From assembly GCA_951406725.2 (NCBI GenBank), contig OX597826.1, positions 65,348,001 through 65,412,000 of the forward strand: a stretch of DNA of 64,000 bases, in the 5' to 3' direction. Source of the stretch: Octopus vulgaris. Taxonomy: Eukaryota. Shown piece by piece: positions 7,748 to 61,453 of this stretch (the stretch's first letter is position 1; each line of letters opens with the position of its first letter). The notes below the pieces were generated by a model. It saw nothing but the letters and a program-made list of their open reading frames with translations. It was not told the DNA's origin and ran no database searches. The position numbers and the translations under genes were made by a program.

Positions 7748-8202
7748 TCATTATTATTGTCTAAATCTCTCCGTTAAACAATGATCACAATGAGCAGACT
7801 TCACTCGCACTATGTATATGTACAGAACTACGTACAAATGTAAGTGCACGCGTGTGTCTATGTGTGGGTACAAAGAGAACACAAGACAGATAGTTAGAGT
7901 AATACAGATTTACACATCTACATATATGTTTTGCTACGGTTTTGCCTTTGTACGTTTATTTTCATTCTTTTTTTCTTTTTTCTGTCTTCAGTTTCTTTGT
8001 CATTTTCGTCCTTACCACTCCTAAAGAATCTCGTCCTCACCACTCCACGAACAAATACTGCGTTCTAAGAATATCAGCTTCTCAGACTCAGCACCAACTG
8101 TTAGACTTTCTAAAGTAAATTTACCTGGTCAAACTATAGATTAGTTTAGTTCCATACTTATAATTAAAAACAAGATTATTATACAATATCAAGGAAATGA
8201 GC

Positions 8203-11200
8203 CTCTTTGATCTCTGTCGGCACACTCTTTGTCAAATCGTCTCACACTTGTGTCAGCACCCTCTTTGATCTCTGTCGGCACCATCTTTGATCTCTGGCGG
8301 CGCCCTCTTTGATCTCTGTCGGCACTCTCTTTTATCTCTATTGGCATCCTCTTTGATCTCTGTCGGCACTCTCTTTGATCTCTGTCGGCACGCTCTTTGA
8401 TCTCTGTGGGCACGCTCTTTGATCTCTGACGACACCCTCTTTGATCTCTGTCAGCACTCTCTTTGATCTCTGCCGGCACTCTCTTTTATCTCTGTCGGCA
8501 TCCTCTTCGATCTCTGTCGAAACTCTCTTTGATCTCTGTCGGCACGCTCTTTGATCTCTTTCGGCACCCTATTTGATCTCTGGAATGTGAAGAATGTCTG
8601 GAATGTCAGGAATGTATGGAATGTCAGGAATGTCTGGAATGTATGGAATGTCAGGAATGTCTGGAATGTATGGAATGTCAGCAACGTCTTTGATCTCTGT
8701 CGGCACTCTCTTTGATCTCTGTCGGCATCCTCTTTGATCTCTGTCGGCACTCTCTTTGATCTCTGTCGACACGCTCTTTGATCTCTGTCGGCACGCTCTT
8801 TGATGTCTGTCGGCACGCTCTTTGAACTCTGTCGGCACCCTCTTTGATCTATGTCGGCACGCCCTTAGATCTCTTTCGGCACACTATTTGATGTATGTCG
8901 GCACCCTCTTTGATCTCTGTCGGCACCCTCTTTGATCTCTGCCGGCACTCTCTTTGATCAATGTCGGAACCGTCTTTGATCTCTGGAATGTATGGAATGC
9001 CAGGAATGTCTGGAATGTCAGGAATGTCTGGAATGTAAGGAATGTCTGGAATGTCAGGGATGTCAGGAATGTCAAGAATGTATGGAATGTCAGGAATGTC
9101 AGGAATGTCTGGAATGTATGGAATGTCCGGATGTCGGCATCCTCTTTGATCTCTGTCGGCACTCTCTTTGATCTCTGCCGACACGCTCTATGATCTCTGT
9201 CGGCACGCTCTTTGATGTCTGTCGGCACTCTCTTTGATCTCTTTCAGCACGCTCTTTGATCAATGTCGGCACGCTCTTTGATCTCTGTTTGCATCACTTT
9301 GATATCTGCCGGCACTCTCTTTTATCTCCGTCGACATCCTCTTTGTTCTCTGTCGGCAAGCTCTTTGATCTCTGTCGACACGCTCTTTGATCTCTTTCGG
9401 CACCCTCTTTGATCTCCGTCGGCACCCTCTTTGATCTCTTTCAGCACGCTCTTTGATCTCCGTCGGTACCCTCTTTAATCTCATTCGGCACACTCTTTGA
9501 TCTCTGTCGGCACCCTCTTTGATCTCTGGAATATCTGGAATGTCAGGAATGTCTGGAATGTCAGGAATGTCCGGAGTGTCAGGAATGTCAGGAGAGTCAG
9601 GAATGTCAGGAATATCTGGAATGTATGGAATGTCTGGAATGTCAGGAATGTCCGGAATGTCTGGAATGTCAGGGATCTCTGGAATGTCTGGAATGTCAGC
9701 AACGTCTTTGATCTCTGTCGGCACCCTATTTGATCTCTGTCGGCACTCTCTTTGAAATCTGTCCGCAATCTCTTTGATCTCTGTCGGCACCGTCTTTGAT
9801 CTCTGTCGGCACACTCATTGATCTCAGCCGACACTCTCTTTTATCTCTGTCGGCATCCTCTTTGATCTATGTCGGCATCCTCTTTGATCTCTGGAATGTC
9901 TGGAATGTCTGGAATGTCAGGAATATCTGGAATGTCAGGAATGACAGCACCGTCTTTTATCTTCGTCGACACCCACTTTGATCTCTGTCGGCACTCTCTT
10001 TGATCTATGTCGGCATCCTCTTTGATATCTGTCGGCACCGTCTTTGATCTCTCTCGGCACTCTCTTTTGATCTCTGTCGGAACGCTCTTTGATCTCTTTC
10101 GACACCCTCTTTGATCTCTGTCGGCACTCTCTTTGATCTCTGCCGAAACTCTCTTTGATCAATGTCGGCACGCTCTTTGATCTCTGTCGGCTCTCTCTTT
10201 GATCTCTGCCGTCATTCTCTTTTATCTCTGTCGGCATCCTCTTTGATCTCTCTCGGCACACTCTTTGATCTCTTTCGGCACCCTATTCGATCTCCGTCGA
10301 CACCCTCTTTGATCTCTGTCGGCACCCTCTTTGATCTCTGGAATATCTGGAATGTCTGGTATGTGTGTAATGTCAAGAATGTCTGGAATGTCAGGAATGT
10401 CTGGAATGTCAGGAATGTCTGGAGTGTCAGGAATGTCAGGAGAGTCAGGAATGGCAGGAATGTATGGAATGTATGGAATGTCAGGAATGTCCGGAATGTC
10501 TGGAATGTCAAGGATCTCTGGAATGACTGGAATGTCAGGAATGTCAGCAACGTCTTTGATCTCTGTCGGCGCCCTATTTGATCTCTGTCGGCACTCTCTT
10601 TGAAATCTGTCCGCATTCTCTTTGATCTCTGTCGGCACCGTCTTTGATCTCTGTCGGCACACTCTTTGATCTCTGCCGGCACTCTCTTTTATCTCTGTCG
10701 GCATCCTCTTTGATCTCTCTCGGCACAATCTTTGATCTCTTTCGGCACCCTCTTCGATCTCCGTCGACACCCTGTTTGATCTCTGTCGGCACCATGTTTG
10801 ATCTCATTCGGCACCCACTTTGATATCTTTCGGCACCCTCTTTGATCTCTCGGCACCCTCTTTGATCTCTGGAATATCTGGAACGTCTGGTATGTGTGTA
10901 ATGTCAAGAATGTCTGGAATGTCAGGAATGTCTGGAATGTCAGGAATGTCTGGAGAGTCAGGAATGTCAGGAGAGTCAGGAATGGCAGGATTGTATGGAA
11001 TGTATGGAATGTCAGGAATGTCCGGAATGTCTGGAATGTCAGAGATCTCTGGAATGACTGGAATGTCAGGAATGTCAGCAACGTCTTTGATCTCTGTCGG
11101 CACCCTATTTGATCTCTGTCGGCACTCTCTTTGAAATCTGTCCACATTCTCTTCGATCTCTGTCGGCACCGTCTTTGATCTCTGTCGGCACACTCTTTGA

Positions 11201-12330
11201 TCTCAGCCGGCACTCTGTTTTATCTCTGTCGGCATCCTCTTTGATCTTTGCCGGCGCACTCTTTGAGCTCTGCCGGCACTCTCTTTTATATCTGTCGGCA
11301 TCCTCTTTGATCTCTTTCGGCACTCCCTTTTATCTCTGTCGGCACTCTCTTTGATCTCTGCGACACTCTCTTTTATCTCTGTCGGCATCCTCTTTGATCT
11401 CTCTCGGCACTCTCTTTGATCTCTTGCGGCACCCTCTTTGATATCCGCCGACACCCTCTTTGATCTATGTCAGAACCCTCTTTGATCTCTGTCTTCACCC
11501 TCTTTGATCTCTGTCGGCACCGTCTTTGATCTCTGGAATGTCTGGAATGTCAAGAATGTGTGGAATGTCAGGAATGTCAGGAATGTCTCGAATGTCAGGA
11601 ATGTCTGGAATGTATGGAATGTTAGGAATGTCCGGATGTCTGGAATGTCAGGAATGTCAGCAATGTCTTTGATCTCTGTCCGCACTCTCTTTGATCTCTG
11701 TCGGCACTCTCTTTCATCTCTGCCGGCACTCTCTTTTATCTCTGTCGGCATCCTCTTTGATCTCACTCGGCACTCTCTTTGATCTCTTTCGGCACCCTCT
11801 TTGATATCCGTCGACACCCTCTTTGATCTCTGTCGGCACCCTCTTTGATCTCTTTTGGCACCAACTTTGATCTCTGTCGGCACCCTCTATGATCTCTTTC
11901 GGCACCCTCTTTGATCTCTGTCGGCACCCTCTTTGATCTCTGGAATGTCTGGAATGTCAAGAATTCCAGATATCAAAGAGGGTGCCGACAGAGATCAAAG
12001 AGAGTGCCGAAAGAAATCAAAGAGGGTGCCGACAGATATCAAAGAGGGTGTCGACGGATATCAAAAAGGGTGCCGGCAGAGATCAAAGAGAGTGCCGAGA
12101 GAGATCAAAGAGGATGCCGACAGAGATAAAAGAGAGTGCCGGCTGAGATCAAAGAGTGTGCCGACAGAGATCAAAGAGGATGCAGACAGAGATCAAAGAG
12201 AATGCGGACAGATTTCAAAGAGAGTGCCGATAGAGATCAAATAGGGTGCCGACAGAGATCAAAGACGTTGCAAGAATGTCTGGAATGTCGGGAATGTCTG
12301 GAATGTCAGGAATGTCAGGAATTTCAGGAA
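8203..12330. repeat. Compound minisatellite: 22-bp unit CTCTTTGATCTCTGTCGGCACN alternating with blocks of 9-bp GGAATGTC(A/T), with an inverted segment at ~11963-12271
   Basis: Units directly visible. Near-identical 9-mer blocks at ~10338 and ~10869 give a higher-order period of ~530 bp. Confidence 0.95.
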
Positions 12331-12920
12331 TGTTGCTGTTCTGTTTTTACTTGCTGTTCTATTTTTAGTTTATTTGTTCTATTTTTAGTCGCTGTTCTAT
12401 TTTTAGTTTATTTGTCCAATTTTTAGTTTATTTGTCCTATTTTGAGTTTATTTGTCCTATTTTTAGTTTATTTCTCCTATTTTTAATTTATTTGTTCTAT
12501 TTTAAGTTTATTTGTCCTAATTTTAGATGCTGTTCTATTTTTAGTTTATTTGTTCTATTTTTAGTTGCTGTTCTATTTTTAGTTTATTTGTTCTATTTTT
12601 AGTTGCTGTTCTATATTGGGTTTATTTGTTCTATTCTTAGTTGCTGTTCTATTTTTAGTTGCTGTTCTATTTTTAGTTTATTTGTTCTATTTTTTGTTGC
12701 TGTTCTAATTTTAGTTAACTTGTAATATTTTTAGCTGCTGTTCTATTTTTAGTTAATTTGTCCTATTTTTAGTTTATTTGTTCTATTTTTAGTTTATTTT
12801 TCCTATTCTTAGTTGCTGTTCTATTTTTAGTTTATTTCTTCTATTTTTAGTTTATTTGTCCTAATTTTAGTTGCTGTTCTATTTTTAGTTTATTTGTCCT
12901 ATTTTTAGTTTGTCCTATTT
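12331..12920. repeat. AT-rich minisatellite, 18/20-bp units (GTTGCTGTTCTATTTTTA and GTTTATTTGTTCTATTTTTA)
   Basis: Directly visible. Confidence 0.92.
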
Positions 12921-13820
12921 TTATAGCTTCTATTTATTGTTTCTATTTATTGTTTCTATTTATAGCTACTATTTATAGATTCTATTTATAGATTCTATTT
13001 ATAGATTCTATTTATAGATTCTATTTATAGATTGTATTTATAAATACTATTTATAGATTCTATTTATTTATTTATTTATTTATTTATTTATTCATTTATA
13101 GATTCTATTTATAGATTCTATTTATAGATTCTATTTATAGATACTATTTATATATTCTATTTATAGATTCTATTTATAGATTCTATTTATAGATTCTATT
13201 TATAGATTCTATTTATAGATACTATTTATTTATTTATTTATTTATTTATTTATAGATTCTATTTATAGATACTCTTTATTTATTTATTTATTTATAGATT
13301 CTATTAATAGATTCTATTTATTTGTTTATTTATTTATAAATTCAATTTATAGATTCTATTTATAGATTCTATTTATTTATTTATTTGTTTATTTCTTTAT
13401 TTATAGATTCTATTTATAGATTCTATTTATAGATTCTATTTATTTATATATTTATTTATAAATAGAATCTATAAATTGAATCTATAAATAGTATCTATAA
13501 ATAGAATCATTAAATTGCATCTATAAATAGAATCTATGAATAAATAAATAAATAAATAAATACATGAATAGAATCTGTAAATAGAATCTATAAATAGACT
13601 CTATAAATAAATAAATAAATAAATAAATAGAATCTATAAATAGAATCTATAAATAGAATCTATAAATAAATAAATAAATAGAATAAATAAATAAATAAAT
13701 AAATAAATAGAATCTATAAATAGAATCTATAAATAGAATCTATAAATAGAATCTATAAATAGAATCTATAAATAGTATCTATAAATAGAATCATTAAATA
13801 GTATCTATAAATAGAATCTA

Positions 13821-13851
<31 letters not shown>

Positions 13852-14399
13852 ATACATGAATAGAATCTATAAATACAATCATTAAATAGAATCTATAAAT
13901 AGAATCTATAAATAGAATCTATAAATAGAATCTATAAATAGAATCAATAAATAAATAAATAAATAAATAAATAGTATCTATAAATAGAATCTATAAATAG
14001 AATCTATAAATAGAATCTATAAATAGAATCTATAAATAGAATCTATAAATAGAATCTATAAATAGAATCTATAAATAGAATCAATAAATAGAATCTATAA
14101 ATAAATAAATAAATAAATAAATAGAATCTATAAATAGAATCTATAAAATAGAATCTATAAATAAAAAATAAAAAAATAAATAAATATATAAATAGAATCT
14201 ATAAATAGAATCTAAAAATAGAATCTATAAATAGAATCTATAAATAAATAAATAAATAAAGAAATAGAATCTATAAATAAATAAATAAATAAATAAATAG
14301 AATCTATAAATAAATAAATAAATAAATAAATAGAATGTATAAATAGAATCTATAAATAGAATCTATAAATAGAATCTATAAATAGAATCTATAAATAGT
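12921..14399. repeat. 13-bp satellite (CTATTTATAGATT)n mixed with (ATTT)n, switching to the reverse complement at ~13458
   Basis: Directly visible. Runs into the N gap. Confidence 0.92.
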
Positions 14400-14499
14400 N
14401 NNNNNNNNNNNNNNNNNNNNNNNNNNNNNNNNNNNNNNNNNNNNNNNNNNNNNNNNNNNNNNNNNNNNNNNNNNNNNNNNNNNNNNNNNNNNNNNNNNN
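14400..14499. other. Assembly gap (100 N)
   Basis: Run of N. Confidence 1.
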
Positions 14500-15683
14500 T
14501 AAAAGAAATGAACATTAAAAACAAGTGCACCGTCATCCATGCCCACACATTTTCCTCCTGTGACATCACAATTTTCTTTCACACACTGCGTTGCCATCTG
14601 AGATACCTCTGTTCTTTGGTCCTCACGTAACTGCACATTTGCAAACTTCTTCTTTTCTGCTTCTCCCTTGGCTATGTAGAGCTGTCACACAACCTCCCCT
14701 TGACTATCTGTTACAGTTCCAAGGTAGCCCCACTCTTCCAGGCTTTCCAGGCCTGTTTCTTTGCTCTAATGCCCTTGTCTACTATATTATTCCACCATCA
14801 CATTTCTCTGAGTCTGGAAGGGACTTTGCCCCAGCCCCACATTTGGTCTGTGGTGCTCAGTAAGCTATTTCGTAGGAATTTCCAACTACGCACTATGTCC
14901 AAAGAATGTGGCTCCTCCTCCCACTCATCAGATTTCTCGATGACGATCTCCCTAAATCTCTGACCATGTGAAGGGTTCTTTAGCTTCCAAATCTTCTTTT
15001 CTGCATTGGTCTGCTGCTTGGCATTCTTCGACCTAGAGTCTAAAGTCAATAATGACAAATCTATTCTGGGGTTTACATTCTTCACCCGGGAGTGCCTTTG
15101 TATTTATGAGCAACCCTGTGTACCACTGTCTGTTGATGGTGAAATAAATCTGGCTAGCAGAGTCACATGATTGATAGGTTATCAACTGGTTGCCTGGCTT
15201 CCTGAAGTTAGTGTTGCAGATTAATAGCTTACATACATATGCGACTATGGATGCATTTAACATAGTATGAGATAAGCCTCCTGTTACCAGGGTAGAGATG
15301 AACTTACATTTCAGATCTTAATCCAGAGAAGTTAAAACATGTTTCTATACGTGAATGTAGATATATGAGTTCCAATCGGAAGGTATTGAGACATCTCTTA
15401 TGGTAACAGGATTGACTATGCCAAGACTGACCTGCAGCTGTCATGTAGACTCATTAATTAATACATTCACACTCACATTAGTTATAGCTGTGTTTCACAA
15501 TAAATTGTATGCTCTATGATCATCTTTGAAATGACACCTTTTTCTGCTGCCAAGAATCTCATTAATTGTGTCGAGAGAGTCAAAGGAATTTGCCACACAC
15601 GGGATTTCTCTCTTGAGAAAAATTGAAGCCAAATATATCTCTAATCATACATTATTTTCTTTCAAAATTTGCAGAATACATAC

Positions 15684-15749
15684 CTCCTTGATTGGGTTGC
15701 TGTGTGCTTTGTTCTCCATTTCCTACAACTTGAGGAATTTCCGTAGTAC
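15684..15749 (-). CDS. 66-nt symmetric phase-1 exon (GTTEIPQVVGNGEQSTQQPNQG); further copies 17205-17271 (67 nt, +1 indel), 18726-18791, 20245-20310, 21762-21827, 23283-23348, 24802-24867, 28172-28237
   Basis: Acceptor catttcttttaag| and donor GAG|gtatgt. Length is a multiple of 3 with no stop. Confidence 0.65.
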
Positions 15750-18700
15750 CTTAAAAGAAATGTACAAAAATAAGGAACTGAACAACAACATATGTACTAA
15801 GATGTAAGATACAATATGGATATTATACTATGATATATCCACACATTACATAGATCTCCAATTAGTCCCTCATGTCCTAACCTACACACGATGTCCTACT
15901 ATAACAACACTCATCATAGCTTGTCCCTCTACTGGATCAACATTTGGCAGGATCTCCTCCTCCCATTTATTCTCCACATTCAGCAGCCTTTCATAATGTC
16001 TTCTCCAAGACTCTTTCTTTTCAGAATCATTAAAAACAAGTGCACCGTCATCCATGCCCACACATTTCCCTCCTGTGACATCACAATTTTCTTTCACACA
16101 CTGTCTTGCAATCTGAAATACTTCTGTTCTTTGGTCCTCAAGTCACTGAACATTGGCAAACTTCTTCTTTTCTGCTTCTCCCTTAGCTATGTAGAGCTGT
16201 TACACAGCCTCCCCTTGACTATCTGTTACAGTTCCTAAGGTACCTCCACTCTTCCAGGCTTTCCAGGCCTGTTTCTTTGCTCTAATGCCCTTGTCTACCA
16301 TATTATTCCACCATCACATTTCTCTGGGTCTGAAGGGACTTTGCCCCAGCCCCACATTTGGTCTGTGGTGCTCAGTAAGCTGTTTCGTAGGAATTTCCAA
16401 CTACTCACTATGTCCAAAGTATGTTGCTCCTCCTCTCCTCCCACTCATCAAATTTCTCAATGACGATCTCCCTAAATCTCTGACCATGTGAAGTGTTCTT
16501 TAGCTTCCAAATCTTCTTTTCTGCATTGGTCTGCTGCTTGGCATTCATCGACCTTGAGTCTAAAGTCAATAATGACAAATCTATTCTGGGGTTTACATTC
16601 TTCACCCGGGAGTGCCTTTGTATTTATGAGCAACCCTGTGTACCACTGTCTGTTGATGGTGAAATAAATCTGGCTAGCAAAATCACATGATTGATAGGTT
16701 ATCAACTGGTTGCCTGGCTTCCTGAAGTTAGTGTTGCAGATTAATAGGTTACATACATATGCGACTATGGATGCATTTAACATAGTATGAGATAAGCCTC
16801 TGTTATCAGGGTAGAGATGAACTTACATTTCAGATCTTAATCCAGAGAAGTTAAAACATGTTTTTACGCGTTAATGTAATATATGAGTTCCAATCGGAAG
16901 GTATTGAGACATCTCTTATGGTAACAGGATTGACTATGCCAAGACTGACCTGCAGCTGTCATGTAGACTCATTAATTAATACATTCACACTCGCATCAGT
17001 TATAGCTGTGTTTCACAATAAATTGTATGCTCTATGATCATCTTTGAAATGACACCTTTTTCTGCTGCCAAGAATCTCATTAATTGTGTCGAGAGAGTCA
17101 AAGGAATTTGCCACACACGGGATTTCTCTCTTCTTGAGAAAAATTGAAGCCAAATATATCTCTAATCATACATTATTTTCTTTCAAAATTTGCAGAATAC
17201 ATACCTCCTTGATTGGGTTGCTGTGTGCTTTGTTCTCCATTTCCTACAACTTGAGGAATTTCCAGTAGTACCTTAAAAGAAATGTACAAAAATAAGGAAC
17301 TGAACAACAACATATGTACTAAGATGTAAGATACAATATGGATATTATACTATGATATATCCACACATTACATAGATCTCCAATTAGTCCCTCATGTCCT
17401 AACCTACACACGATGTCCTACTATAACAACACTCATCATAGCTTGTCCCTCTACTGGATCAACATTTGGCAGGATCTCCTCCTCCCATTTATTCTCCACA
17501 TTCAGCAGCCTTTCATAATGTCTTCTCCAAGACTCTTTCTTTTCAGAATCATTAAAAACAAGTGCACCGTCATCCATGCCCACACATTTCCCTCCTGTGA
17601 CATCACAATTTTCTTTCACACACTGTCTTGCAATCTGAAATACTTCTGTTCTTTGGTCCTCAAGTCACTGAACATTGGCAAACTTCTTCTTTTCTGCTTC
17701 TCCCTTAGCTATGTAGAGCTGTTACACAGCCTCCCCTTGACTATCTGTTACAGTTCCTAAGGTACCTCCACTCTTCCAGGCTTTCCAGGCCTGTTTCTTT
17801 GCTCTAATGCCCTTGTCTACCATATTATTCCACCATCACATTTCTCTGGGTCTGGAAGGGACTTTGCCCCAGCCCCACATTTGGTCTGTGGTGCTCAGTA
17901 AGCTGTTTCGTAGGAATTTCCAACTACTCACTATGTCCAAAGTATGTTGCTCCTCCTCTCCTCCCACTCATCAAATTTCTCAATGACGATCTCCCTAAAT
18001 CTCTGACCATGTGAAGTGTTCTTTAGCTTCCAAATCTTCTTTTCTGCATTGGTCTGCTGCTTGGCATTCATCGACCTCGAGTCTAAAGTCAATAATGACA
18101 AATCTATTCTGGGGTTTACATTCTTCACCCGGGAGTGCCTTTGTATTTATGAGCAACCCTGTGTACCACTGTCTGTTGATGGTGAAATAAATCTGGCTAG
18201 CAAAATCACATGATTGATAGGTTATCAACTGGTTGCCTGGCTTCCTGAAGTTAGTGTTGCAGATTAATAGGTTACATACATATGCGACTATGGATGCATT
18301 TAACATAGTATGAGATAAGCCTCTGTTATCAGGGTAGAGATGAACTTACATTTCAGATCTTAATCCAGAGAAGTTAAAACATGTTTTTACGCGTTAATGT
18401 AATATATGAGTTCCAATCGGAAGGTATTGAGACATCTCTTATGGTAACAGGATTGACTATGCCAAGACTGACCTGCAGCTGTCATGTAGACTCATTAATT
18501 AATACATTCACACTCGCATCAGTTATAGCTGTGTTTCACAATAAATTGTATGCTCTATGATCATCTTTGAAATGACACCTTTTTCTGCTGCCAAGAATCT
18601 CATTAATTGTGTCGAGAGAGTCAAAGGAATTTGCCACACACGGGATTTCTCTTCTTGAGAAAAATTGAAGCCAAATATATCTCTAATCATACATTATTTT

Positions 18701-21700
18701 CTTTCAAAATTTGCAGAATACATACCTCCTTGATTGGGTTGCTGTGTGCTTTGTTCTCCATTTCCTACAACTTGAGGAATTTCCGTAGTACCTTAAAAGA
18801 AATGTACAAAAATAAGGAACTGAACAACAACATATGTACTAAGATGTAAGATACAATATGGATATTATACTATGATATATCCACACATTACATAGATCTC
18901 CAATTAGTCCCTCATGTCCTAACCCTACACACGATGTCCTACTATAACAACACTCATCATAGCTTGTCCTCTACTGGATCAACATTTGGCAGGATCTCCT
19001 CCTCCCATTTATTCTCCACATTCAGCAGCCTTTCATAATGTCTTCTCCAAGACTCTTTCTTTTCAGAATCATTAAAAACAAGTGCACCGTCATCCATGCC
19101 CACACATTTCCCTCCTGTGACATCACAATTTTCTTCACACACTGTCTTGCAATCTGAAATACTTCTGTTCTTTGGTCCTCAAGTCACTGAACATTGGCAA
19201 ACTTCTTCTTTTCTGCTTCTCCCTTAGCTATGTAGAGCTGTTACACAGCCTCCCCTTGACTATCTGTTACAGTTCCTAAGGTACCTCCACTCTTCCAGGC
19301 TTTCCAGGCCTGTTTCTTTGCTCTAATGCCCTTGTCTACCATATTATTCCACCATCACATTTCTCTGGGTCTGGAAGGGACTTTGCCCCAGCCCCACATT
19401 TGGTCTGTGGTGCTCAGTAAGCTGTTTCGTAGGAATTTCCAACTACTCACTATGTCCAAAGTATGTTGCTCCTCCTCTCCTCCCACTCATCAAATTTCTC
19501 AATGACGATCTCCCTAAATCTCTGACCATGTGAAGTGTTCTTTAGCTTCCAAATCTTCTTTTCTGCATTGGTCTGCTGCTTGGCATTCTTCGACCTCGAG
19601 TCTAAAGTCAATAATGACAAATCTATTCTGGGGTTTACATTCTTCACCCGGGAGTGCCTTTGTATTTATGAGCAACCCTGTGTACCACTGTCTGTTGATG
19701 GTGAAATAAATCTGGCTAGCAAAATCACATGATTGATAGGTTATCAACTGGTTGCCTGGCTTCCTGAAGTTAGTGTTGCAGATTAATAGGTTACATACAT
19801 ATGCGACTATGGATGCATTTAACATAGTATGAGATAAGCCTCTGTTATCAGGGTAGAGATGAACTTACATTTCAGATCTTAATCCAGAGAAGTTAAAACA
19901 TGTTTTTACGCGTTAATGTAATATATGAGTTCCAATCGGAAGGTATTGAGACATCTCTTATGGTAACAGGATTGACTATGCCAAGACTGACCTGCAGCTG
20001 TCATGTAGACTCATTAATTAATACATTCACACTCGCATCAGTTATAGCTGTGTTTCACAATAAATTGTATGCTCTATGATCATCTTTGAAATGACACCTT
20101 TTCTGCCTTTTAAGAATCTCATTAATTGTGTCGAGAGAGTCAAAGGAATTTGCCACACACGGGATTTCTCTTCTTGAGAAAAATTGAAGCCAAATATATC
20201 TCTAATCATACATTATTTTCTTTCAAAATTTGCAGAATACATACCTCCTTGATTGGGTTGCTGTGTGCTTTGTTCTCCATTTCCTACAACTTGAGGAATT
20301 TCCGTAGTACCTTAAAAGAAATGTACAAAAATAAGGAACTGAACAACAACATATGTACTAAGATGTAAGATACAATATGGATATTATACTATGATATATC
20401 CACACATTACATAGATCTCCAATTAGTCCTCATGTCCTAACCTACACACGATGTCCTACTATAACAACACTCATCATAGCTTGTCCCTCTACTGGATCAA
20501 CATTTGGCAGGATCTCCTCCTCCCATTTATTCTCCACATTCAGCAGCCTTTCATAATGTCTTCTCCAAGACTCTTCTTTCAGAATCATTAAAAACAAGTG
20601 CACCGTCATCCATGCCCACACATTTCCCTCCTGTGACATCACAATTTTCTTTCACACACTGTCTTGCAATCTGAAATACTTCTGTTCTTTGGTCCTCAAG
20701 TCACTGAACATTGGCAAACTTCTTCTTTTCTGCTTCTCCCTTAGCTATGTAGAGCTGTTACACAGCCTCCCCTTGACTATCTGTTACAGTTCCTAAGGTA
20801 CCTCCACTCTTCCAGGCTTTCCAGGCCTGTTTCTTTGCTCTAATGCCCTTGTCTACCATATTATTCCACCATCACATTTCTCTGGGTCTGGAAGGGACTT
20901 TGCCCCAGCCCCACATTTGGTCTGTGGTGCTCAGTAAGCTGTTTCGTAGGAATTTCCAACTACTCACTATGTCCAAAGTATGTTGCTCCTCCTCTCCTCC
21001 CACTCATCAAATTTCTCAATGACGATCTCCCTAAATCTCTGACCATGTGAAGTGTTCTTTAGCTTCCAAATCTTCTTTTCTGCATTGGTCTGCTGCTTGG
21101 CATTCATCGACCTCGAGTCTAAAGTCAATAATGACAAATCTATTCTGGGGTTTACATTCTTCACCCGGGAGTGCCTTTGTATTTATGAGCAACCCTGTGT
21201 ACCACTGTCTGTTGATGGTGAAATAAATCTGGCTAGCAAAATCACATGATTGATAGGTTATCAACTGGTTGCCTGGCTTCCTGAAGTTAGTGTTGCAGAT
21301 TAATAGGTTACATACATATGCGACTATGGATGCATTTAACATAGTATGAGATAAGCCTCTGTTATCAGGGTAGAGATGAACTTACATTTCAGATCTTAAT
21401 CCAGAGAAGTTAAAACATGTTTTTACGCGTTAATGTAATATATGAGTTCCAATCGGAAGGTATTGAGACATCTCTTATGGTAACAGGATTGACTATGCCA
21501 AGACTGACCTGCAGCTGTCATGTAGACTCATTAATTAATACATTCACACTCGCATCAGTTATAGCTGTGTTTCACAATAAATTGTATGCTCTATGATCAT
21601 CTTTGAAATGACACCTTTTTCTGCTGCCAAGAATCTCATTAATTGTGTCGAGAGAGTCAAAGGAATTTGCCACACACGGGATTTCTCTTCTTGAGAAAAA

Positions 21701-24700
21701 TTGAAGCCAAATATATCTCTAATCATACATTATTTTCTTTCAAAATTTGCAGAATACATACCTCCTTGATTGGGTTGCTGTGTGCTTTGTTCTCCATTTC
21801 CTACAACTTGAGGAATTTCCGTAGTACCTTAAAAGAAATGTACAAAAATAAGGAACTGAACAACAACATATGTACTAAGATGTAAGATACAATATGGATA
21901 TTATACTATGATATATCCACACATTACATAGATCTCCAATTAGTCCCTCATGTCCTAACCTACACACGATGTCCTACTATAACAACACTCATCATAGCTT
22001 GTCCCTCTACTGGATCAACATTTGGCAGGATCTCCTCCTCCCATTTATTCTCCACATTCAGCAGCCTTTCATAATGTCTTCTCCAAGACTCTTTCTCTTT
22101 CAGAATCATTAAAAACAAGTGCACCGTCATCCATGCCCACACATTTCCCTCCTGTGACATCACAATTTTCTTTCACACACTGTCTTGCAATCTGAAATAC
22201 TTCTGTTCTTTGGTCCTCAAGTCACTGAACATTGGCAAACTTCTTCTTTTCTGCTTCTCCCTTAGCTATGTAGAGCTGTTACACAGCCTCCCCTTGACTA
22301 TCTGTTACAGTTCCTAAGGTACCTCCACTCTTCCAGGCTTTCCAGGCCTGTTTCTTTGCTCTAATGCCCTTGTCTACCATATTATTCCACCATCACATTT
22401 CTCTGGGTCTGGAAGGGACTTTGCCCCAGCCCCACATTTGGTCTGTGGTGCTCAGTAAGCTGTTTCGTAGGAATTTCCAACTACTCACTATGTCCAAAGT
22501 ATGTTGCTCCTCCTCTCCTCCCACTCATCAAATTTCTCAATGACGATCTCCCTAAATCTCTGACCATGTGAAGTGTTCTTTAGCTTCCAAATCTTCTTTT
22601 CTGCATTGGTCTGCTGCTTGGCATTCTTCGACCTCGAGTCTAAAGTCAATAATGACAAATCTATTCTGGGGTTTACATTCTTCACCCGGGAGTGCCTTTG
22701 TATTTATGAGCAACCCTGTGTACCACTGTCTGTTGATGGTGAAATAAATCTGGCTAGCAAAATCACATGATTGATAGGTTATCAACTGGTTGCCTGGCTT
22801 CCTGAAGTTAGTGTTGCAGATTAATAGGTTACATACATATGCGACTATGGATGCATTTAACATAGTATGAGATAAGCCTCTGTTATCAGGGTAGAGATGA
22901 ACTTACATTTCAGATCTTAATCCAGAGAAGTTAAAACATGTTTTTACGCGTTAATGTAATATATGAGTTCCAATCGGAAGGTATTGAGACATCTCTTATG
23001 GTAACAGGATTGACTATGCCAAGACTGACCTGCAGCTGTCATGTAGACTCATTAATTAATCCATTCACACTCGCATCAGTTATAGCTGTGTTTCACAATA
23101 AATTGTATGCTCTATGATCATCTTTGAAATGACACCTTTTTCTGCTGCCAAGAATCTCATTAATTGTGTCGAGAGAGTCAAAGGAATTTGCCACACACGG
23201 GATTTCTCTTCTTGAGAAAAATTGAAGCCAAATATATCTCTAATCATACATTATTTTCTTTCAAAATTTGCAGAATACATACCTCCTTGATTGGGTTGCT
23301 GTGTGCTTTGTTCTCCATTTCCTACAACTTGAGGAATTTCCGTAGTACCTTAAAAGAAATGTACAAAAATAAGGAACTGAACAACAACATATGTACTAAG
23401 ATGTAAGATACAATATGGATATTATACTATGATATATCCACACATTACATAGATCTCCAATTAGTCCCTCATGTCCTAACCTACACACGATGTCCTACTA
23501 TAACAACACTCATCATAGCTTGTCCTCTACTGGATCAACATTTGGCAGGATCTCCTCCTCCCATTTATTCTCCACATTCAGCAGCCTTTCATAATGTCTT
23601 CTCCAAGACTCTTTCTTTTCAGAATCATTAAAAACAAGTGCACCGTCATCCATGCCCACACATTTCCCTCCTGTGACATCACAATTTTCTTTCACACACT
23701 GTCTTGCAATCTGAAATACTTCTGTTCTTTGGTCCTCAAGTCACTGAACATTGGCAAACTTCTTCTTTTCTGCTTCTCCCTTAGCTATGTAGAGCTGTTA
23801 CACAGCCTCCCCTTGACTATCTGTTACAGTTCCTAAGGTACCTCCACTCTTCCAGGCTTTCCAGGCCTGTTTCTTTGCTCTAATGCCCTTGTCTACCATA
23901 TTATTCCACCATCACATTTCTCTGGGTCTGGAAGGGACTTTGCCCCAGCCCCACATTTGGTCTGTGGTGCTCAGTAAGCTGTTTCGTAGGAATTTCCAAC
24001 TACTCACTATGTCCAAAGTATGTTGCTCCTCCTCTCCTCCCACTCATCAAATTTCTCAATGACGATCTCCCTAAATCTCTGACCATGTGAAGTGTTCTTT
24101 AGCTTCCAAATCTTCTTTTCTGCATTGGTCTGCTGCTTGGCATTCATCGACCTCGAGTCTAAAGTCAATAATGACAAATCTATTCTGGGGTTTACATTCT
24201 TCACCCGGGAGTGCCTTTGTATTTATGAGCAACCCTGTGTACCACTGTCTGTTGATGGTGAAATAAATCTGGCTAGCAAAATCACATGATTGATAGGTTA
24301 TCAACTGGTTGCCTGGCTTCCTGAAGTTAGTGTTGCAGATTAATAGGTTACATACATATGCGACTATGGATGCATTTAACATAGTATGAGATAAGCCTCT
24401 GTTATCAGGGTAGAGATGAACTTACATTTCAGATCTTAATCCAGAGAAGTTAAAACATGTTTTTACGCGTTAATGTAATATATGAGTTCCAATCGGAAGG
24501 TATTGAGACATCTCTTATGGTAACAGGATTGACTATGCCAAGACTGACCTGCAGCTGTCATGTAGACTCATTAATTAATACATTCACACTCGCATCAGTT
24601 ATAGCTGTGTTTCACAATAAATTGTATGCTCTATGATCATCTTTGAAATGACACCTTTTTCTGCTGCCAAGAATCTCATTAATTGTGTCGAGAGAGTCAA

Positions 24701-26226
24701 AGGAATTTGCCACACACGGGATTTCTCTTCTTGAGAAAAATTGAAGCCAAATATATCTCTAATCATACATTATTTTCTTTCAAAATTTGCAGAATACATA
24801 CCTCCTTGATTGGGTTGCTGTGTGCTTTGTTCTCCATTTCCTACAACTTGAGGAATTTCCGTAGTACCTTAAAAGAAATGTACAAAAATAAGGAACTGAA
24901 CAACAACATATGTACTAAGATGTAAGATACAATATGGATATTATACTATGATATATCCACACATTACATAGATCTCCAATTAGTCCCTCATGTCCTAACC
25001 TACACACGATGTCCTACTATAACAACACTCATCATAGCTTGTCCCTCTACTGGATCAACATTTGGCAGGATCTCCTCCTCCCATTTATTCTCCACATTCA
25101 GCAGCCTTTCATAATGTCTTCTCCAAGACTCTTTCTTTTCAGAATCATTAAAAACAAGTGCACCGTCATCCATGCCCACACATTTCCCTCCTGTGACATC
25201 ACAATTTTCTTTCACACACTGTCTTGCAATCTGAAATACTTCTGTTCTTTGGTCCTCAAGTCACTGAACATTGGCAAACTTCTTCTTTTCTGCTTCTCCC
25301 TTAGCTATGTAGAGCTGTTACACAGCCTCCCCTTGACTATCTGTTACAGTTCCTAAGGTACCTCCACTCTTCCAGGCTTTCCAGGCCTGTTTCTTTGCTC
25401 TAATGCCCTTGTCTACCATATTATTCCACCATCACATTTCTCTGGGTCTGGAAGGGACTTTGCCCCAGCCCCACATTTGGTCTGTGGTGCTCAGTAAGCT
25501 GTTTCGTAGGAATTTCCAACTACTCACTATGTCCAAAGTATGTTGCTCCTCCTCTCCTCCCACTCATCAAATTTCTCAATGACGATCTCCCTAAATCTCT
25601 GACCATGTGAAGTGTTCTTTAGCTTCCAAATCTTCTTTTCTGCATTGGTCTGCTGCTTGGCATCCTTCGACCTCGAGTCTAAAGTCAATAATGACAAATC
25701 TATTCTGGGGTTTACATTTTCTACCCAGTATTAATTAATACTTTCACACTCGCATTAGTTATAGCAGAGTTTCACAATAAATTGTATGGTCTATGATAAT
25801 CTTTGAAATGACACCATTTTCTGCTGCCAAGAATCTCATTAATTGTGTCGAGAGAGTCAAAGGAATTTTGGAAATGGTCACAAGAAGTGATGACTCATGT
25901 ATCTTATGTTTATGACCCTGAAACTATGCTAAAAGTCAAACCACACTACAAATGAAAACATTTCAATATATTCAGCAAATCCAAGAGAATGGCCCAAGAC
26001 ATACAGTGCTGAAAAATGTTGATTTCTTTGTCACTGTACGTCACTGTGACTTGTCATCACACTTTATATAAATATTTTCTACATTAGGAAATCTCTTTGT
26101 CTTCACTCACTTTTTCAATATTTTCACACGTACATACACAAGCACACACACACACACACACACACACAAGTAAGTCCATAAATTAATCTTTACGGGATTT
26201 CTCTTCAAAATTCGCAGAGTACATAC

Positions 26227-26292
26227 CTCCTTGATTGGGTTGCGGTGTGCTTTGTTCTCCATTTCCTACAACTTGAGGACGTTCAGTAGTAA
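26227..26292 (-). CDS. Diverged paralog of the 66-nt exon (VTTERPQVVGNGEQSTPQPNQG)
   Basis: Same splice sites and length retained despite substitutions and different flanks. Confidence 0.65.
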
Positions 26293-26586
26293 CTTAAAAG
26301 AAATGAACAAAAATAAGGAACTGAACAACAACATATGTACTAAGATGTAAGATACAATATGGATATTATACTATGATATATTCACACATTACATAGTCCT
26401 GCAATCAGTCTCCCCATGGTCCAACTTACTTAAGTTCTCCAACCATAATGACACTCACCATATATATATTTTCATAAATATACATACATATACATACATA
26501 CACATGTGTGTATGTATATGTGTGTATATATAATGTAGATATATATATACATATATATATAGATATACATACATATATATATATAC

Positions 26587-26632
<46 letters not shown>

Positions 26633-29600
26633 TCCAGAATACTTGCACTAATGTAAGCAATGTTGTATCAAGTGTGTAGTTTCAGGAAAGGACTAATTTG
26701 TGGGGAATACAGTGCTGAAATGATAAGTATGTTGTTTTCTTTGTCACTGTACGTCACTGTGTGTTTTTATAACCCTTTATATAAATATTTGCTACATTAG
26801 GAAATCTCTTTGTTTTCACTCAATTTTTAAATGTTTTCACACGTACATACACAAGCACACACACACACACACATACACACACACACATATACTCATAGGT
26901 AAGTCCATATATTAATCTTTACGGGATTTCTCTTCTTCAAAAAAAATTAAAGCCAAGTATATCTCTAATCAGGACTTTCAGCAGTAACTTAAAAGAAATG
27001 AACATTAAAAACAAGTGCACCGTCATCCATGCCCACACATTTTCCTCCTGTGACATCACAATTTTCTTTCACACACTGCGTTGCCATCTGAAATACTTCT
27101 GTTCTTTGGTCCTCACGTAACTGCACATTTGCAAACTTCTTCTTTTCTGCTTCTCCCTTGGCTATGTAGAGCTGTCACACAACCTCCCCTTGACTATCTG
27201 TTACAGTTCCAAGGTAACCTCACTCTTCCAGGCTTTCCAGGCCTGTTTCTTTGCTCTAATGCCCTTGTCTACTATATTATTCCACCATCACATTTCTCTG
27301 GGTCTGGAAGGGACTTTGCCCCAGCCCCACATTTGGTCTGTGGTGCTCAGTAAGCTATTTCGTAGGAATTTCCAACTACGCACTATGTCCAAAGAATGTG
27401 GCTCCTCCCCCCACTCATCAAATTTCTCGATGACGATCTCCCTAAATCTCTGACCATGTGAAGGGTTCTTTAGCTTCCAAATCTTCTTTTCTGCATTGGT
27501 CTGCTGCTTGGCATTCATCGACCTCGAGTCTAAAGTCAATAATGACAAATCTATTCTGGGGTTTACATTCTTCACCCGGGAGTGCCTTTGTATTTATGAG
27601 CAACCCTGTGTACCACTGTCTGTTGATGGTGAAATAAATCTGGCTAGCAAATCACATGATTGATAGGTTATCAACTGGTTGCCTGGCTTCCTGAAGTTAG
27701 TGTTGCAGATTAATAGGTTACATACATATGCGACTATGGATGCATTTAACATAGTATGAGATAAGCCTCTGTTATCAGGGTAGAGATGAACTTACATTTC
27801 AGATCTTAATCCAGAGAAGTTAAAACATGTTTTTACGCGTTAATGTAATATATGAGTTCCAATCGGAAGGTATTGAGACATCTCTTATGGTAACAGGATT
27901 GACTATGCCAAGACTGACCTGCAGCTGTCATGTAGACTCATTAATTAATACATTCACACTCACATCAGTTATAGCTGTGTTTCACAATAAATTGTATGCT
28001 CTATGATCATCTTTGAAATGACACCTTTTTCTGCTGCCAAGAATCTCATTAATTGTGTCGAGAGAGTCAAAGGAATTTGCCACACACGGGATTTCTCTTC
28101 TTGAGAAAAATTGAAGCCAAATATATCTCTAATCATACATTATTTTCTTTCAAAATTTGCAGAATACATACCTCCTTGATTGGGTTGCTGTGTGCTTTGT
28201 TCTCCATTTCCTACAACTTGAGGAATTTCCGTAGTACCTTAAAAGAAATGTACAAAAATAAGGAACTGAACAACAACATATGTACTAAGATGTAAGATAC
28301 AATATGGATATTATACTATGATATATCCACACATTACATAGATCTCCAATTAGTCCCTCATGTCCTAACCTACACACGATGTCCTACTATAACAACACTC
28401 ATCATAGCTTGTCCCTCTACTGGATCAACATTTGGCAGGATCTCCTCCTCCCATTTATTCTCCACATTCAGCAGCCTTTCATAATGTCTTCTCCAAGACT
28501 CTTTCTTTTCAGAATCATTAAAAACAAGTGCACCGTCATCCATGCCCACACATTTCCCTCCTGTGACATCACAATTTTCTTTCACACACTGTCTTGCAAT
28601 CTGAAATACTTCTGTTCTTTGGTCCTCAAGTCACTGAACATTGGCAAACTTCTTCTTTTCTGCTTCTCCCTTAGCTATGTAGAGCTGTTACACAGCCTCC
28701 CCTTGACTATCTGTTACAGTTCCTAAGGTACCTCCACTCTTCCAGGCTTTCCAGGCCTGTTTCTTTGCTCTAATGCCCTTGTCTACCATATTATTCCACC
28801 ATCACATTTCTCTGGGTCTGGAAGGGACTTTGCCCCAGCCCCACATTTGGTCTGTGGTGCTCAGTAAGCTGTTTCGTAGGAATTTCCAACTACTCACTAT
28901 GTCCAAAGTATGTTGCTCCTCCTCTCCTCCCACTCATCAAATTTCTCAATGACGATCTCCCTAAATCTCTGACCATGTGAAGTGTTCTTTAGCTTCCAAA
29001 TCTTCTTTTCTGCATTGGTCTGCTGCTTGGCATCCTTCGACCTCGAGTCTAAAGTCAATAATGACAAATCTATTCTGGGGTTTACATTTTCTACCCAGTA
29101 TTAATTAATACTTTCACACTCGCATTAGTTATAGCAGAGTTTCACAATAAATTGTATGGTCTATGATAATCTTTGAAATGACACCATTTTCTGCTGCCAA
29201 GAATCTCATTAATTGTGTCGAGAGAGTCAAAGGAATTTTGGAAATGGTCACAAGAAGTGATGACTCATGTATCTTATGTTTATGACCCTGAAACTATGCT
29301 AAAAGTCATACCCCACTACAAATGAAAATATTTCAATATATTAGGGAAATCCAAGAGAATGTTCCAAGACAGTTCCTTGCTGTCACAACAAAGAAGAACT
29401 GAGAATGCTTGCACTAATGTCAGCAATGCTGTATGAAGTGTGTAGTTTCAGGAAAGGACTACTTTGGGGGAGATACAGTGTTGACATTATATGTATGTTG
29501 TTTTCTTTCTTACCATAAGCCACTGTGAGATTTCATAACACTTTATATATGCATTTGCTACATTAGGAAATCTCTTTGTCTTCATTCAATGTGCAGCAAA

Positions 29601-31235: not shown

Positions 31236-31644
31236 AGTATGGCCTCGATTGACTACAAAGTATGGCCTGGATTGACTACAGGTATGGCCTGGATTGACTA
31301 CAAAGTATGGCCTGGATTGACTACAAAGTATGGCCTGGATTGACTACAAAGTATGGCCTGGATTGACTACAAAGTATGGCCTGGATTGACTACAAAGTAT
31401 GGCCTGGATTGACTACAAAGTATGGCCTGGATTGACTACAAAGTATGGCCTGGATTGACTACAAAGTATGGCCTGGATTGACTACAAAGTATGGTCTGGA
31501 TTGACTACAAAGTATGGCCTGGATTGACTACAAAGTATGGCCTGGATTGACTACAAGTATGACCTGGATTGACTACAAAGTATGGCCTGGATTGACTACA
31601 AAGTATGGCCTGGATTGACTACAAAGTATGGCCTGGATTGACTA
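31236..31644 (+). repeat. 23-bp tandem array AGTATGGCCTGGATTGACTACAA (~18 units)
   Basis: Unit identical to the Dong RT coding sequence for SMAWIDYK (e.g. 31799-31821). Confidence 0.95.
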
Positions 31645-33746
31645 TAATAAAGATCAACTAATGATTAATAAAGCCATAACTGAAGACAGCCACAGAAAGA
31701 AGAAAGGCCTCGGTATGGCCTGGATTGACTATAATAAAGATCAACTAATGATTAATAAAGCCATAACTGAAGACAGCCACAGAAAGAAGAAAGGCCTCAG
31801 TATGGCCTGGATTGACTACAAAAAGGCGTTTGATAGCATCCCCCACACATGGATCCTCGAAACACTAGCCATTAACAAAGTAGCACCAACAATCATAAAA
31901 TTCATAGAGCACTCTATGAATAAATGGCAAACAGTCCTACACCTTCAAACAAAAGAGGGACTCATGAAAACCAAAGACATCCCCATTAGAAGAGGAATAT
32001 TCCAGGGAGACATGCTCTCTCCACTCCTTTTCTGCTTGGCACTGTCACCTCTATCTGATATGCTAAATAGAACTGGATGCGGATATAAATGTTACGGCAA
32101 AACGATCAGCCACCTTTTATATATGGATGACCTAAAACTATACGCTGCAAATGACAAACAGCTGGAAACACTATTAAAGACATAGATATGAAATTTGGAT
32201 TAGAAAAATGCGCCAAAGTAACCATGAAAAGAGGAAAACTAGTTAAGAGTAACAACATCACACTAGATAAAACCAATGAAATAAAAGAATTAGACCAAAG
32301 CCAAACTTACAAATACTTAGGAATCCATGAACTAGATAAGACACAACACACACAAATGAAAGAGAAAATAAAAAAAGAATATTATAGACGAGTTAGATCA
32401 ATACTAAACACAGAGCTCAATGCTAAAAACAAGATAATAGGTATCAACACTTTAGCTGTCCCAGTTTTAAGTTACAGCTACAATATCCTTAACTGGACAC
32501 GAAATGAACTGACCAAAATAGATAGGAAAACAAGAAAAATAATGACAGGATCTAGGATGCATCACCCAAAATCTGACATAGAAAGACTATATATACAATG
32601 TATAGAAGGTGGTAGAGGCCTTATACAGCTGGAAAACTACTATAAAATAACCACCATAGGACTGCAAAAATATCTACTTCAGAAGGAAGGAAAACTGATC
32701 CAGATAGCGGCAGAACATGAGCAAAACAAAAAACTGTTCTCAGTATTTAAGGAAGCTGACAAATACAAACAAGAAATCATACCACCTAATAAACATGAAG
32801 AAGAAGATGAAGAAACAACAAAAGCTATAAAACAAATGAAATCCAAACTAAAAATAGAACAGCAACGGACCATGATAAAACGATGGCAAGAAAAGCCCCT
32901 TCATGGTAAATACTGGACTAAACTAAACGCAAAAGAAATAGACAAAGAAAAATCCCAGCAATGGTTGAGAAGCTCAGGACTCAAAGCAGAAACAGAGGGA
33001 TTTTTAATTGCAGCACAAGACCAAAGCCTTCCCACCAGAAATTACCAAAAACATGTAATGAAAAGAAATATTACAAGTAACTGCAGAATATGTGGAGATG
33101 GACAGGAAACAATAAATCATATTATCTCTAGCTGCCCAGTCCTGGCTAAGAAGGAATATATTCACAGACATGACAGAGTTGGAACCTACATACATTGGAA
33201 GCTATGCCAACATTATGGAATAACAACAGAAAAAAGATGGTATAGGCACACACCAGAAAAGGTCACAGAAAACGAGAAAGCAACCATACTCTGGGATATG
33301 CCGATACACACAGATAGAGAAATTAAGGCCAACAGACCAGATATAGTTGTCAGAGACCATGAAGAAAAAAATGCTTTCTAATTGATGTATCAATACCGGC
33401 TGATGACAACGTGTCTCTAAAAGAAATGGAGAAACTCTCAAAATACAAAACCTGGAAATAGAGGTAACTAGAATGTGGAATCTGAAAACAGAAACAATTC
33501 CTATCATAGTAGGTGCATTAGGCATGATAAAAAAATATTCAGACAAATACATAACAAAAACACCAGGACTTACAAACACATATAACACACAGAAAATTGC
33601 ACTACTAGGCACTGCACACATCCTACACAGAACACTTTCCATACAATAACCATCAGAGCATCACAACAAATCACAGCACATACCCAAGGCACACAGAGCT
33701 GCGCTCGGTAGTGAAGTGAAAGCACGCTATAAAAATAAAACTACTG
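31645..33746 (+). mobile_element. 5'-truncated R4/Dong element, copy A (frameshifted)
   Basis: Near-identical to 4841-6970. Deletion at ~32182 and frameshifts near 33370 and 33450. Ends ctactg + (TAA)n. Confidence 0.93.
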
Positions 33747-36579: not shown

Positions 36580-36720
36580 CTCGTCCATTACTTGTAGCAC
36601 TTGTAGCACTTGTAGCACTTGTAGCACTTGTAGCACTTGTAGCATTATTTGTAGCACTTGGTGTTCTGCTTCTTCGAGCTACAAAGGAAAATACAAGACA
36701 AGAAAAAGATAGCGCATTAC
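36580..36720 (-). CDS. Phase-1 exon with in-frame (SAT)n expansion: GNALSFSCLVFSFVARRSRTPSATNNAT(SAT)5SNGR; alternative acceptor gives 36580-36678
   Basis: Acceptors ttttctaag| and ttcctttgtag| lie 42 nt apart in the same frame. Donor GAG|gtgaga. Lengths 141 and 99 nt. Confidence 0.6.
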
Positions 36721-39575: not shown

Positions 39576-39632
39576 CTTCATTATTTCCATTTTGTTGACC
39601 GTTATCCATTAGAGGTCTTTCTTCCTGAGGAT
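39576..39632 (-). CDS. 57-nt symmetric phase-1 exon (DPQEERPLMDNGQQNGNNE)
   Basis: Acceptor tatattttttcttag|, donor GAAG|gtgaga, open frame. Confidence 0.6.
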
Positions 39633-48075: not shown

Positions 48076-48159
48076 CTCGTCCATTACTTGTAGCACTTGG
48101 TGTTCTGCTTCTTCGAGCTACAAAGGAAAATACAAGACAAGAAAAAGATAGCGCATTAC
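48076..48159 (-). CDS. Phase-1 exon paralog GNALSFSCLVFSFVARRSRTPSATSNGR (short form 48076-48117)
   Basis: Same splice sites as 36580-36720 without the SAT expansion. Lengths 84 and 42 nt. Confidence 0.55.
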
Positions 48160-51197: not shown

Positions 51198-51202
51198 TAA
51201 TA

Positions 51203-51428
51203 AAGTATGGCCTGGATTGACTACAAAGTATGGCCTGGATTGACTACAAGTATGGCCTGGATTGACTACAAAGTATGGCCTCGATTGACTATAAAGTATG
51301 GCCTGGATTGACTACAAAGTATGGCCTGGTTTGACTACAAGTATGGCCTGGATTGACTACAAAGTATGGCCTGGGTTGACTACAAAGTATGGCCTGGATT
51401 GACTACAAAGTATGGCCTGGATTGACTA
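51203..51428 (+). repeat. 23-bp Dong-derived tandem array (~10 units)
   Basis: Same unit as 31236. Confidence 0.95.
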
Positions 51429-54761: not shown

Positions 54762-54806
54762 CTAATAATTTTTGTATCTTCTGAGGGCATGCAAAAACTA
54801 CACACA
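54762..54806 (-). CDS. 45-nt symmetric phase-1 exon (VCVVFACPQKIQKLL), possibly the end of a transmembrane segment
   Basis: Acceptor ttttgttttgtctttag|, donor TAG|gtcagt, open frame. Confidence 0.5.
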
Positions 54807-57204: not shown

Positions 57205-57962
57205 AATTAAATAGAACTTCTAATGATGAACAAAATGTACAAACTTTCATAGAGCATTCTAAATGGATGTTAAACATTATGAATATTCCAAAGGTTTTCT
57301 CTTTATCTTCTATCTACCCACTTTTACATTCATTCTTTACATTCATTTTACATTCATTATATGAAAATGTACATACAATTTACATTCATTATATGAAAAT
57401 GTGACATCTCCAGTCATTTGTAGTTCAATAAGAATTAAAAAAATAAATAAATAAAATTAATCAATAGCCTCAAAATGTGCAAAGCAATTACAACAATTTG
57501 CTAAAAATCAGCACTCTGTGATTATAGACGACATAAAAAAAAAGGCAAAATTCAAATTGGACATCAGTTCAATGTTTCAGTAAACCTTGAGGTTGGAATT
57601 ACAGATGTAAAAACTATGAAAATAAATTAAGCTAAGTGATGAGAGGTTGAGAAAATTCTACGGTGTGACACTGGATTTATAAGATTTTTATGGTTATTAT
57701 TAGTATAAAAAAAAAATGCACAAACCTGCAATAATAATAATAAGAAGAGCAACACTAAAGAGGATACCAAAAATAATTGCAAGATTTGGACTTTCAGGAT
57801 CTGAAATTAAAAGGAAGCAATAGATTAATGTTCTGAAAACTGTGCATGAATACTACATATAAATACAAAATATTAATACCAGTTGTTGAAATTAATGCAA
57901 GCAAGATTTCACAGAACTAGAATCCCTCCTTCATAGTCAGCCTATGAACTGATCATCCCAAC

Positions 57963-60015: not shown

Positions 60016-60065
<50 letters not shown>

Positions 60066-61369: not shown

Positions 61370-61453
61370 CTCCTCCATTACTTGTAGCACTTGGTGTTCT
61401 GCTTCTTCGAGCTTCAAAGGAAAATACAAGACCTGAAGAAGATGGCGTATTAC
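61370..61453 (-). CDS. 84-nt phase-1 exon paralog GNTPSSSGLVFSFEARRSRTPSATSNGG (GC donor; may be a pseudo-exon)
   Basis: Acceptor ttttctaag|. Frame conserved with the 36.6k and 48.1k paralogs. Donor GAG|gcgaga. Confidence 0.4.

Follow-up and report, generated by a model that had tools for sequence, protein, structure and literature searches.

The nine exon copies described here, on the minus strand of the Octopus vulgaris contig OX597826.1, are probably cytoplasmic-tail exons of an octopus membrane protein; their array would have been generated by crossover, and the length of the predicted tail would follow the genomic copy number. Within the sequence analysed, a stretch of 64,000 nucleotides referred to hereafter as the window, nine copies of a 66-nt-type exon were found in or beside an array with a unit of 1.5 kb, seven of them identical, one carrying an additional base and one diverged. 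Every copy was flanked by ...ttcttttaag at the acceptor and gtatgt at the donor, and was open in phase 1. The original prediction had been of nine symmetric minus-strand copies with these borders, and all nine were located, together with a truncated tenth. In their order on the minus strand, the copies and the gap that closes the array are as follows:

28172..28237, minus strand: first copy, encoding a 22-aa unit, phase 1-1; homologues in XP_036364299.1 and A0A0L8H5C1, and contig joints at its borders
26971..26987, minus strand: truncated tenth copy, with the acceptor and ~17 nt left, the remaining exon and donor gone, and an in-frame stop after
26227..26292, minus strand: diverged copy, in which 5 of 66 nt differ (3 amino acid changes), with length, frame and both splice sites intact, by sequence comparison
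24802..24867, minus strand: identical copy, by sequence comparison
23283..23348, minus strand: identical copy, by sequence comparison
21762..21827, minus strand: identical copy, by sequence comparison
20245..20310, minus strand: identical copy, by sequence comparison
18726..18791, minus strand: identical copy, by sequence comparison
17205..17271, minus strand: copy of 67 nt with one extra T, possibly a consensus error, by sequence comparison
15684..15749, minus strand: identical copy, the final one before the gap, by sequence comparison
14400..14499, no strand: assembly gap of 100 N closing the array

Measured from anchor to anchor, eight units were 1517-1523 bp in length, in agreement with the 1.52-kb exon-bearing array that had been proposed, but a single interval was 1851 bp, and the array therefore comprises two blocks rather than one uniform run. 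Six of the eight units differed by 0-4 substitutions, whilst two were more diverged. Each unit of ~1520 bp contained a LINE-like piece of about 575 bp and ~730 bp common to the other introns of the same gene, with an overlap of ~210 bp; the suggestion that the array would be masked as LINE debris thus held for just about 575 of the 1520 bp. No head-to-tail exon join was present anywhere in the window DNA.

As had been predicted, the diverged copy preserved its length, frame and splice sites; relative to the first copy it differed at 5/66 exon letters versus 2/104 letters of the upstream intron, numbers that are too small for a test of selection. The reading frame was kept in eight of the nine copies (66 nt, phase 1-1), and the +1 indel proposed for the remaining one was seen as a single extra T. 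Across the eight units there were 14 unit-level indel events, mostly of single bases, in addition to a burst of differences that spans 7 columns of a single unit. Because the chance that at least one of 14 such events strikes an exon is 0.46, the extra T may be a consensus error, from which a real change is indistinguishable. Judged from the sequence, it would shift the frame if it were real and its copy were included, and the next copy, when read in that shifted frame, was also free of stops.

Splice sites were scored with approximate matrices of our own, not with a published model. With the copies themselves counted, the array-exon acceptor was amongst the best 35 of the 4410 AG sites on the minus strand of the window and the donor amongst the best 19 of the 3639 GT sites, and an equally high-scoring stop-free AG..GT segment occurred in only 2 of 300 Markov-resampled units. 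It is very likely that the 66-nt segment is a symmetric coding exon.

The first exon copy is flanked by two direct repeats of ~575 bp, 94% identical to one another, which we take to resemble a LINE fragment, and for which no informative Pfam or PDB match was found. The repeats and the main block of the array are as follows:

28516..29096, minus strand: type A direct repeat, on the upstream side of the first exon copy, identical to type B at 543 of 574 columns
27003..27577, minus strand: type B direct repeat, on the downstream side of the first exon copy, identical to type A at 543 of 574 columns
14500..25726, minus strand: main array block, made up of a type A repeat, then seven exon units separated by six hybrid B/A repeats, then a type B repeat and the gap

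This second block opens with an A repeat and closes with a B repeat, and the six repeats between them are hybrids, being of B type ahead of the anchor and as far as column 54, and of A type from column 105. At all 23 sites from column 105 onwards where both B repeats differ from A, the A letter was found in six of six inner repeats. This A-hybrid-B pattern is that expected from unequal crossover, and hence the array is likely to have arisen by unequal crossover between the two flanking repeats. Crossover within the ~50-bp identical tract of the A and B repeats, followed by further expansion, would build such an array. In the sequence, each new unit brings a whole exon along with its own splice sites.

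Relatives of the encoded peptide were sought with phmmer, using the 32-aa read-through of the array exon as the query against 1.84 billion proteins. Two hits were retrieved at E<=0.001, the best of which was the Octopus sinensis RefSeq model XP_036364299.1 (E 3.9e-11); the other, P0003 (2235 aa, E 1.2e-5), matched over 16 residues and was dismissed as chance. XP_036364299.1 comprises cysteine-rich repeats, a 14-aa tail exon peptide and then three tandem 22-aa repeats, bearing out the expectation that tandem 22-aa repeats would be found in predicted proteins, and is without a transmembrane segment. In word-based protein searches with XP_036364299.1, only the query itself was recovered amongst proteins of near length (1/1146 candidates) and no relative amongst longer proteins (0/289), whilst the shorter proteins contained one (1/161), O. 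sinensis XP_029655600.1, which falls into one cluster with O. bimaculoides A0A0L8H5C1. By eye, the 394 residues of A0A0L8H5C1 begin like a signal peptide and continue with four six-cysteine repeats, then a hydrophobic segment and finally a polar tail, and the protein ends, after the transmembrane segment, in a single relative of the 22-aa repeat. Six-cysteine repeats are common to XP_036364299.1, XP_029655600.1 and A0A0L8H5C1, and tail peptides are common to these and the window. The number of related units is one in A0A0L8H5C1, three in XP_036364299.1 and nine in this window.

Further exons of the host gene were identified on the same strand, and those of the window aligned to the tail of A0A0L8H5C1 in gene order:

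61370..61453, minus strand: third copy of the 84-nt tail exon, situated on the upstream side of the transmembrane exon, with a GC donor and a weakened inner acceptor
57726..57800, minus strand: predicted transmembrane exon, 75 nt, phase 1-1; best 19-residue hydropathy 3.19; weak match to A0A0L8H5C1 276-295 (48/1000 shuffles as high)
54762..54806, minus strand: predicted juxtamembrane exon, 45 nt, phase 1-1; matching A0A0L8H5C1 300-312 (5/1000 shuffles)
48076..48159, minus strand: 84-nt tail exon, for which an inner acceptor at 48117, in frame, gives a 42-nt form; matching A0A0L8H5C1 310-334 (0/1000 shuffles)
39576..39632, minus strand: predicted tail exon, 57 nt, phase 1-1, preceded by an intron that is a paralogue of the one preceding the array exon
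36580..36720, minus strand: duplicate of the 84-nt tail exon, now 141 nt through a 9-bp repeat, by splice scan and comparison

The juxtamembrane exon was the best six-frame match of the window to A0A0L8H5C1 299-309, by a small margin (23 versus 21), and the inner form of the 48117 exon was identical at 14/14 residues to XP_036364299.1 87-100. A fourth colinear stretch matched by window exons was A0A0L8H5C1 369-380 (9/1000 shuffles as high), whilst the 57-nt exon had no significant peptide match to this protein (443/1000 shuffles as high). One copy of that 57-nt exon survives as its 3' end only (50510-50494). The 9-bp repeat within 36580-36720 is in-frame, present in 6.1 copies and not found in the paralogue at 48076-48159, and represents a second, intra-exonic route of lengthening. 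The tail has thus been lengthened by several routes, namely the array, older tandem duplications and this intra-exonic repeat. The ectodomains of A0A0L8H5C1 and P0004, the C-terminal half of XP_036364299.1 and the final exons had no match within the 64-kb window; the ectodomain exons would sit past base 64000. A candidate last exon at 318-290 was rejected, being devoid of homology support (964/1000 shuffles as high), and a tblastn match at 62093-62067 was not counted as a diverged copy, as by eye it had no splice context and a different surrounding sequence. By eye, the short linker at XP_036364299.1 77-86 looks like the first part of the transmembrane exon read in a shifted frame, and we speculate that this model may rest on an indel.

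From these sequence features, the protein is predicted to be an octopus single-pass membrane protein, with the array exon in its predicted cytoplasmic tail, and in these searches the gene family was seen only in octopus. The database names carried by the family, 'ribosome-binding protein 1-like' and 'TNFR-Cys domain-containing' (the latter given to A0A0L8H5C1 by UniRef), were without Pfam backing: no Pfam match to sushi (PF00084) was obtained in the family proteins at E<=1, nor any TNFR family at E<=1, and A0A0L8H5C1 had no PDB sequence match at E<=10. The Atlas feature hits were sushi clusters, scoring at most 0.82 and hence under the 0.9 bar. With a model of a one-repeat ectodomain (pLDDT 68), Foldseek returned a best E of 2.9, with several CCP-bearing entries amongst the weak rows, and VIA a best Z of 3.4, to unrelated chains; the full-length AlphaFold model of A0A0L8H5C1 had a mean pLDDT of 36. 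A sushi-like ectodomain is accordingly a lead only. Of the papers in the literature covered, none named the four family accessions, none tied O. sinensis to sushi, tandem repeat and transmembrane, and none treated the CD46 tail together with exon duplication.

The surroundings of the array are themselves rich in repeats. Older tandem duplications, 92-99% identical at offsets of about 8-11.5 kb, occupy 29100-54200 and 59820-61685 and have copied introns, a LINE and tail exons. Four copies of a non-LTR retrotransposon, presumably R4/Dong-like and 96-99% identical, lie at 4865-6887, 31619-33746, 43113-45037 and 51202-53466 (RVT_1 E 2.4e-16), three of them with a 23-mer tandem array and an (AAT)n run ahead of the element. 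At 8202-12333 is a compound satellite built from 22-mer and 9-mer blocks; on the minus strand it contains frames of 158-193 codons free of stops, and its end is inverted (11666-11942 versus 11967-12265). Between this and the gap, AT-rich 20/38-mer and 13-mer satellites extend over 12337-14398, and the orientation of the 13-mer flips near 13450, a possible mis-join or fold-back. Stop-free retroelement-like frames were also present within introns of the gene at 58375-59475 and 40684-41127, both on the plus strand; for two such frames, a Pfam scan returned nothing informative.

Contigs from four of 24 listed sequencing runs were aligned to one exon copy and its flanks (27950-28420, likeness 85). 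Three of the runs, X1, X3 and X4, originated from three studies and were taken as RNA by guess only, whilst X15, its kind being off record, was DNA-like; it was read to ~76% and had no cover at 28222-28237, making it an imperfect control. Contig depth, which does not represent copy number, rose over 28174-28237 to as much as 1568 in X1 versus about 80-150 in the near flanks, to 22 in X3 versus 0-2.5, and to 73 in X4 versus 0-2.4. Amongst the joints listed, those going back 66 nt, from exon end to exon start, were found in X1 (depth 75.5) and X4 (depth 18.9), and a second join in X1, with one other letter, had a depth of 34. When decoded by hand, a 168-nt X3 contig was found to contain 14+72+66+16 nt of four successive units. 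A total lack of spliced reads joining these segments had been named in advance as the outcome that would count against the exons; amongst the rows listed, border joints were observed in all three probable RNA runs and not in the one DNA-like run, where none occurred in 22 placed contigs and one contig continued from the exon into the downstream intron. The predicted exon-exon junction agreed with the contigs in geometry and in its first letters, but its exact sequence was not recovered.

The units shown by X3 and X4 mostly had a different 5' start from the array copies, the G-start unit of X4 differing at 3 other letters in 56, and even the best DNA-like run shared just 0.69 of the words; the contig units therefore derive from other alleles, paralogues or species. 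The exon 5' end varied amongst all versions seen, and a 72-nt variant in the contigs, two codons longer near its end, resembled the single O. bimaculoides unit. The junction of the truncated copy (26971-26987) was common to X1, X4 and X15, as an 86-nt skip in X4 and a loose end in X1 and X15, and this copy could act as an alternative last exon. Whilst contigs cannot count identical units or reveal skipping, a real exon family and its tandem splicing are well supported. Since the expressed units mostly differ at the 5' end, we infer the splicing of this array's own copies from that of the family. As all tail exons are phase 1-1, the copies would be spliced one after another, with each adding 22 polar residues to the tail, the length of which would then follow genomic copy number from one unit in O. 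bimaculoides and three in O. sinensis to up to eight or nine here.

An alternative that accepts the exon family as real is that the array is mostly neutral baggage, with the first or the truncated copy serving as the last exon through donor read-through to the stop 10 codons on, and later copies rarely or never included. The A0A0L8H5C1 model itself reads through this donor and terminates after a comparable end of 10 aa, its stop at the same position as in the array copies, although this ending may be a gene-model artefact. An X1 contig also crosses the donor without differences at a depth of 101.5, but X1 covers both introns as well, including the upstream one, so the read-through may be pre-mRNA or DNA, whereas X3 and X4 had zero depth at 28142-28157 and spliced on to the next unit. 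Furthermore, no AATAAA or ATTAAA was present within 1.18 kb past the first copy. The copies are so young (0-4 substitutions in six of eight units) that selection cannot be seen, which would suit neutrality; on balance we consider this account rather unlikely.

The copy number could otherwise be an artefact of assembly, from a two- or three-copy locus over-expanded beside the gap or a longer array cut by it. The array does end at a 100-N gap adjoining satellite DNA, and its mostly single-base indels and burst of differences resemble long-read consensus errors; however, the order of A, hybrid and B repeats is as crossover predicts, some substitutions are common to subsets of units (columns 52 and 1131) and the relatives independently show tandem units, making such an artefact very improbable. 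Slightly less probable still, in our assessment, is that the joints stem from a genomic repeat without introns or a retrocopy at another site, or from back-splicing of one exon, with the array segments being cryptic. The RNA label was guessed, and in unitigs of identical units a circle has the appearance of a tandem, yet the joins link units of differing kind (one X3 contig contains both 72- and 66-nt ones) and sit at AG/GT borders, none was seen in X15, and the colinear exons and two protein models agree. Tandemly spliced tail exons, amplified by crossover, thus remain our preferred reading.

Tandem exons of Dscam are mutually exclusive. Like these and the human set of mutually exclusive tandem exons described in PMC8373072, the array consists of homologous exons in tandem within one gene; the exons of those sets, however, replace one another and are either diverged or ancient, whereas here the units are joined and seven copies are identical. 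A mutually exclusive cassette was ruled out by the four successive units in one X3 contig and the tandem joints in X1 and X4. A closer parallel in layout is LPA kringle IV type 2, where, according to bioRxiv 10.1101/2021.05.26.445678, a 5.2-kb two-exon unit encodes a kringle domain and variation between haplotypes has been shown. Both have a near-identical exon-plus-intron unit in tandem within one gene and one protein repeat per unit, but the octopus unit is 1.52 kb with one exon, and its 22 polar residues lie in a predicted cytoplasmic tail. Of the KIV-2-type features, the repeated exon-plus-intron unit, frame preservation and the joining of units in family transcripts (probable RNA) are present here. 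In the model of PMC8831618, amplification by unequal exchange between flanking repeats involves short repeated sequences in variable number; the octopus unit is likewise bounded by direct repeats, but here fragments of ~575 bp with 94% identity form the flanks, and a single exon makes up the unit instead of a gene.

Expansion by exon units is a known route of gene lengthening, and this octopus case is new. Such expansion is less usual in cytoplasmic tails than in ectodomains. The function of the repeat can be guessed at as that of a disordered spacer or of multiplied Ser/Thr sites. A more speculative and quite doubtful extension is that this is a fast-evolving family of octopus cell-surface receptors, in which the numbers of ectodomain repeats and tail exons vary between individuals, each unit can act as an inner or, by read-through, a last exon, and a regulated series of tail lengths arises from a single allele; if true, such a series might suit self/non-self or neuronal recognition. 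At this locus exon amplification would be seen while under way, the crossover tract being legible to this day, and in a family mislabelled by automatic annotation. Near-identical exon arrays are easily masked or collapsed, and variation in cephalopod protein length may be under-counted. If copy number proves polymorphic, the locus would offer a simple test of whether tail length matters.
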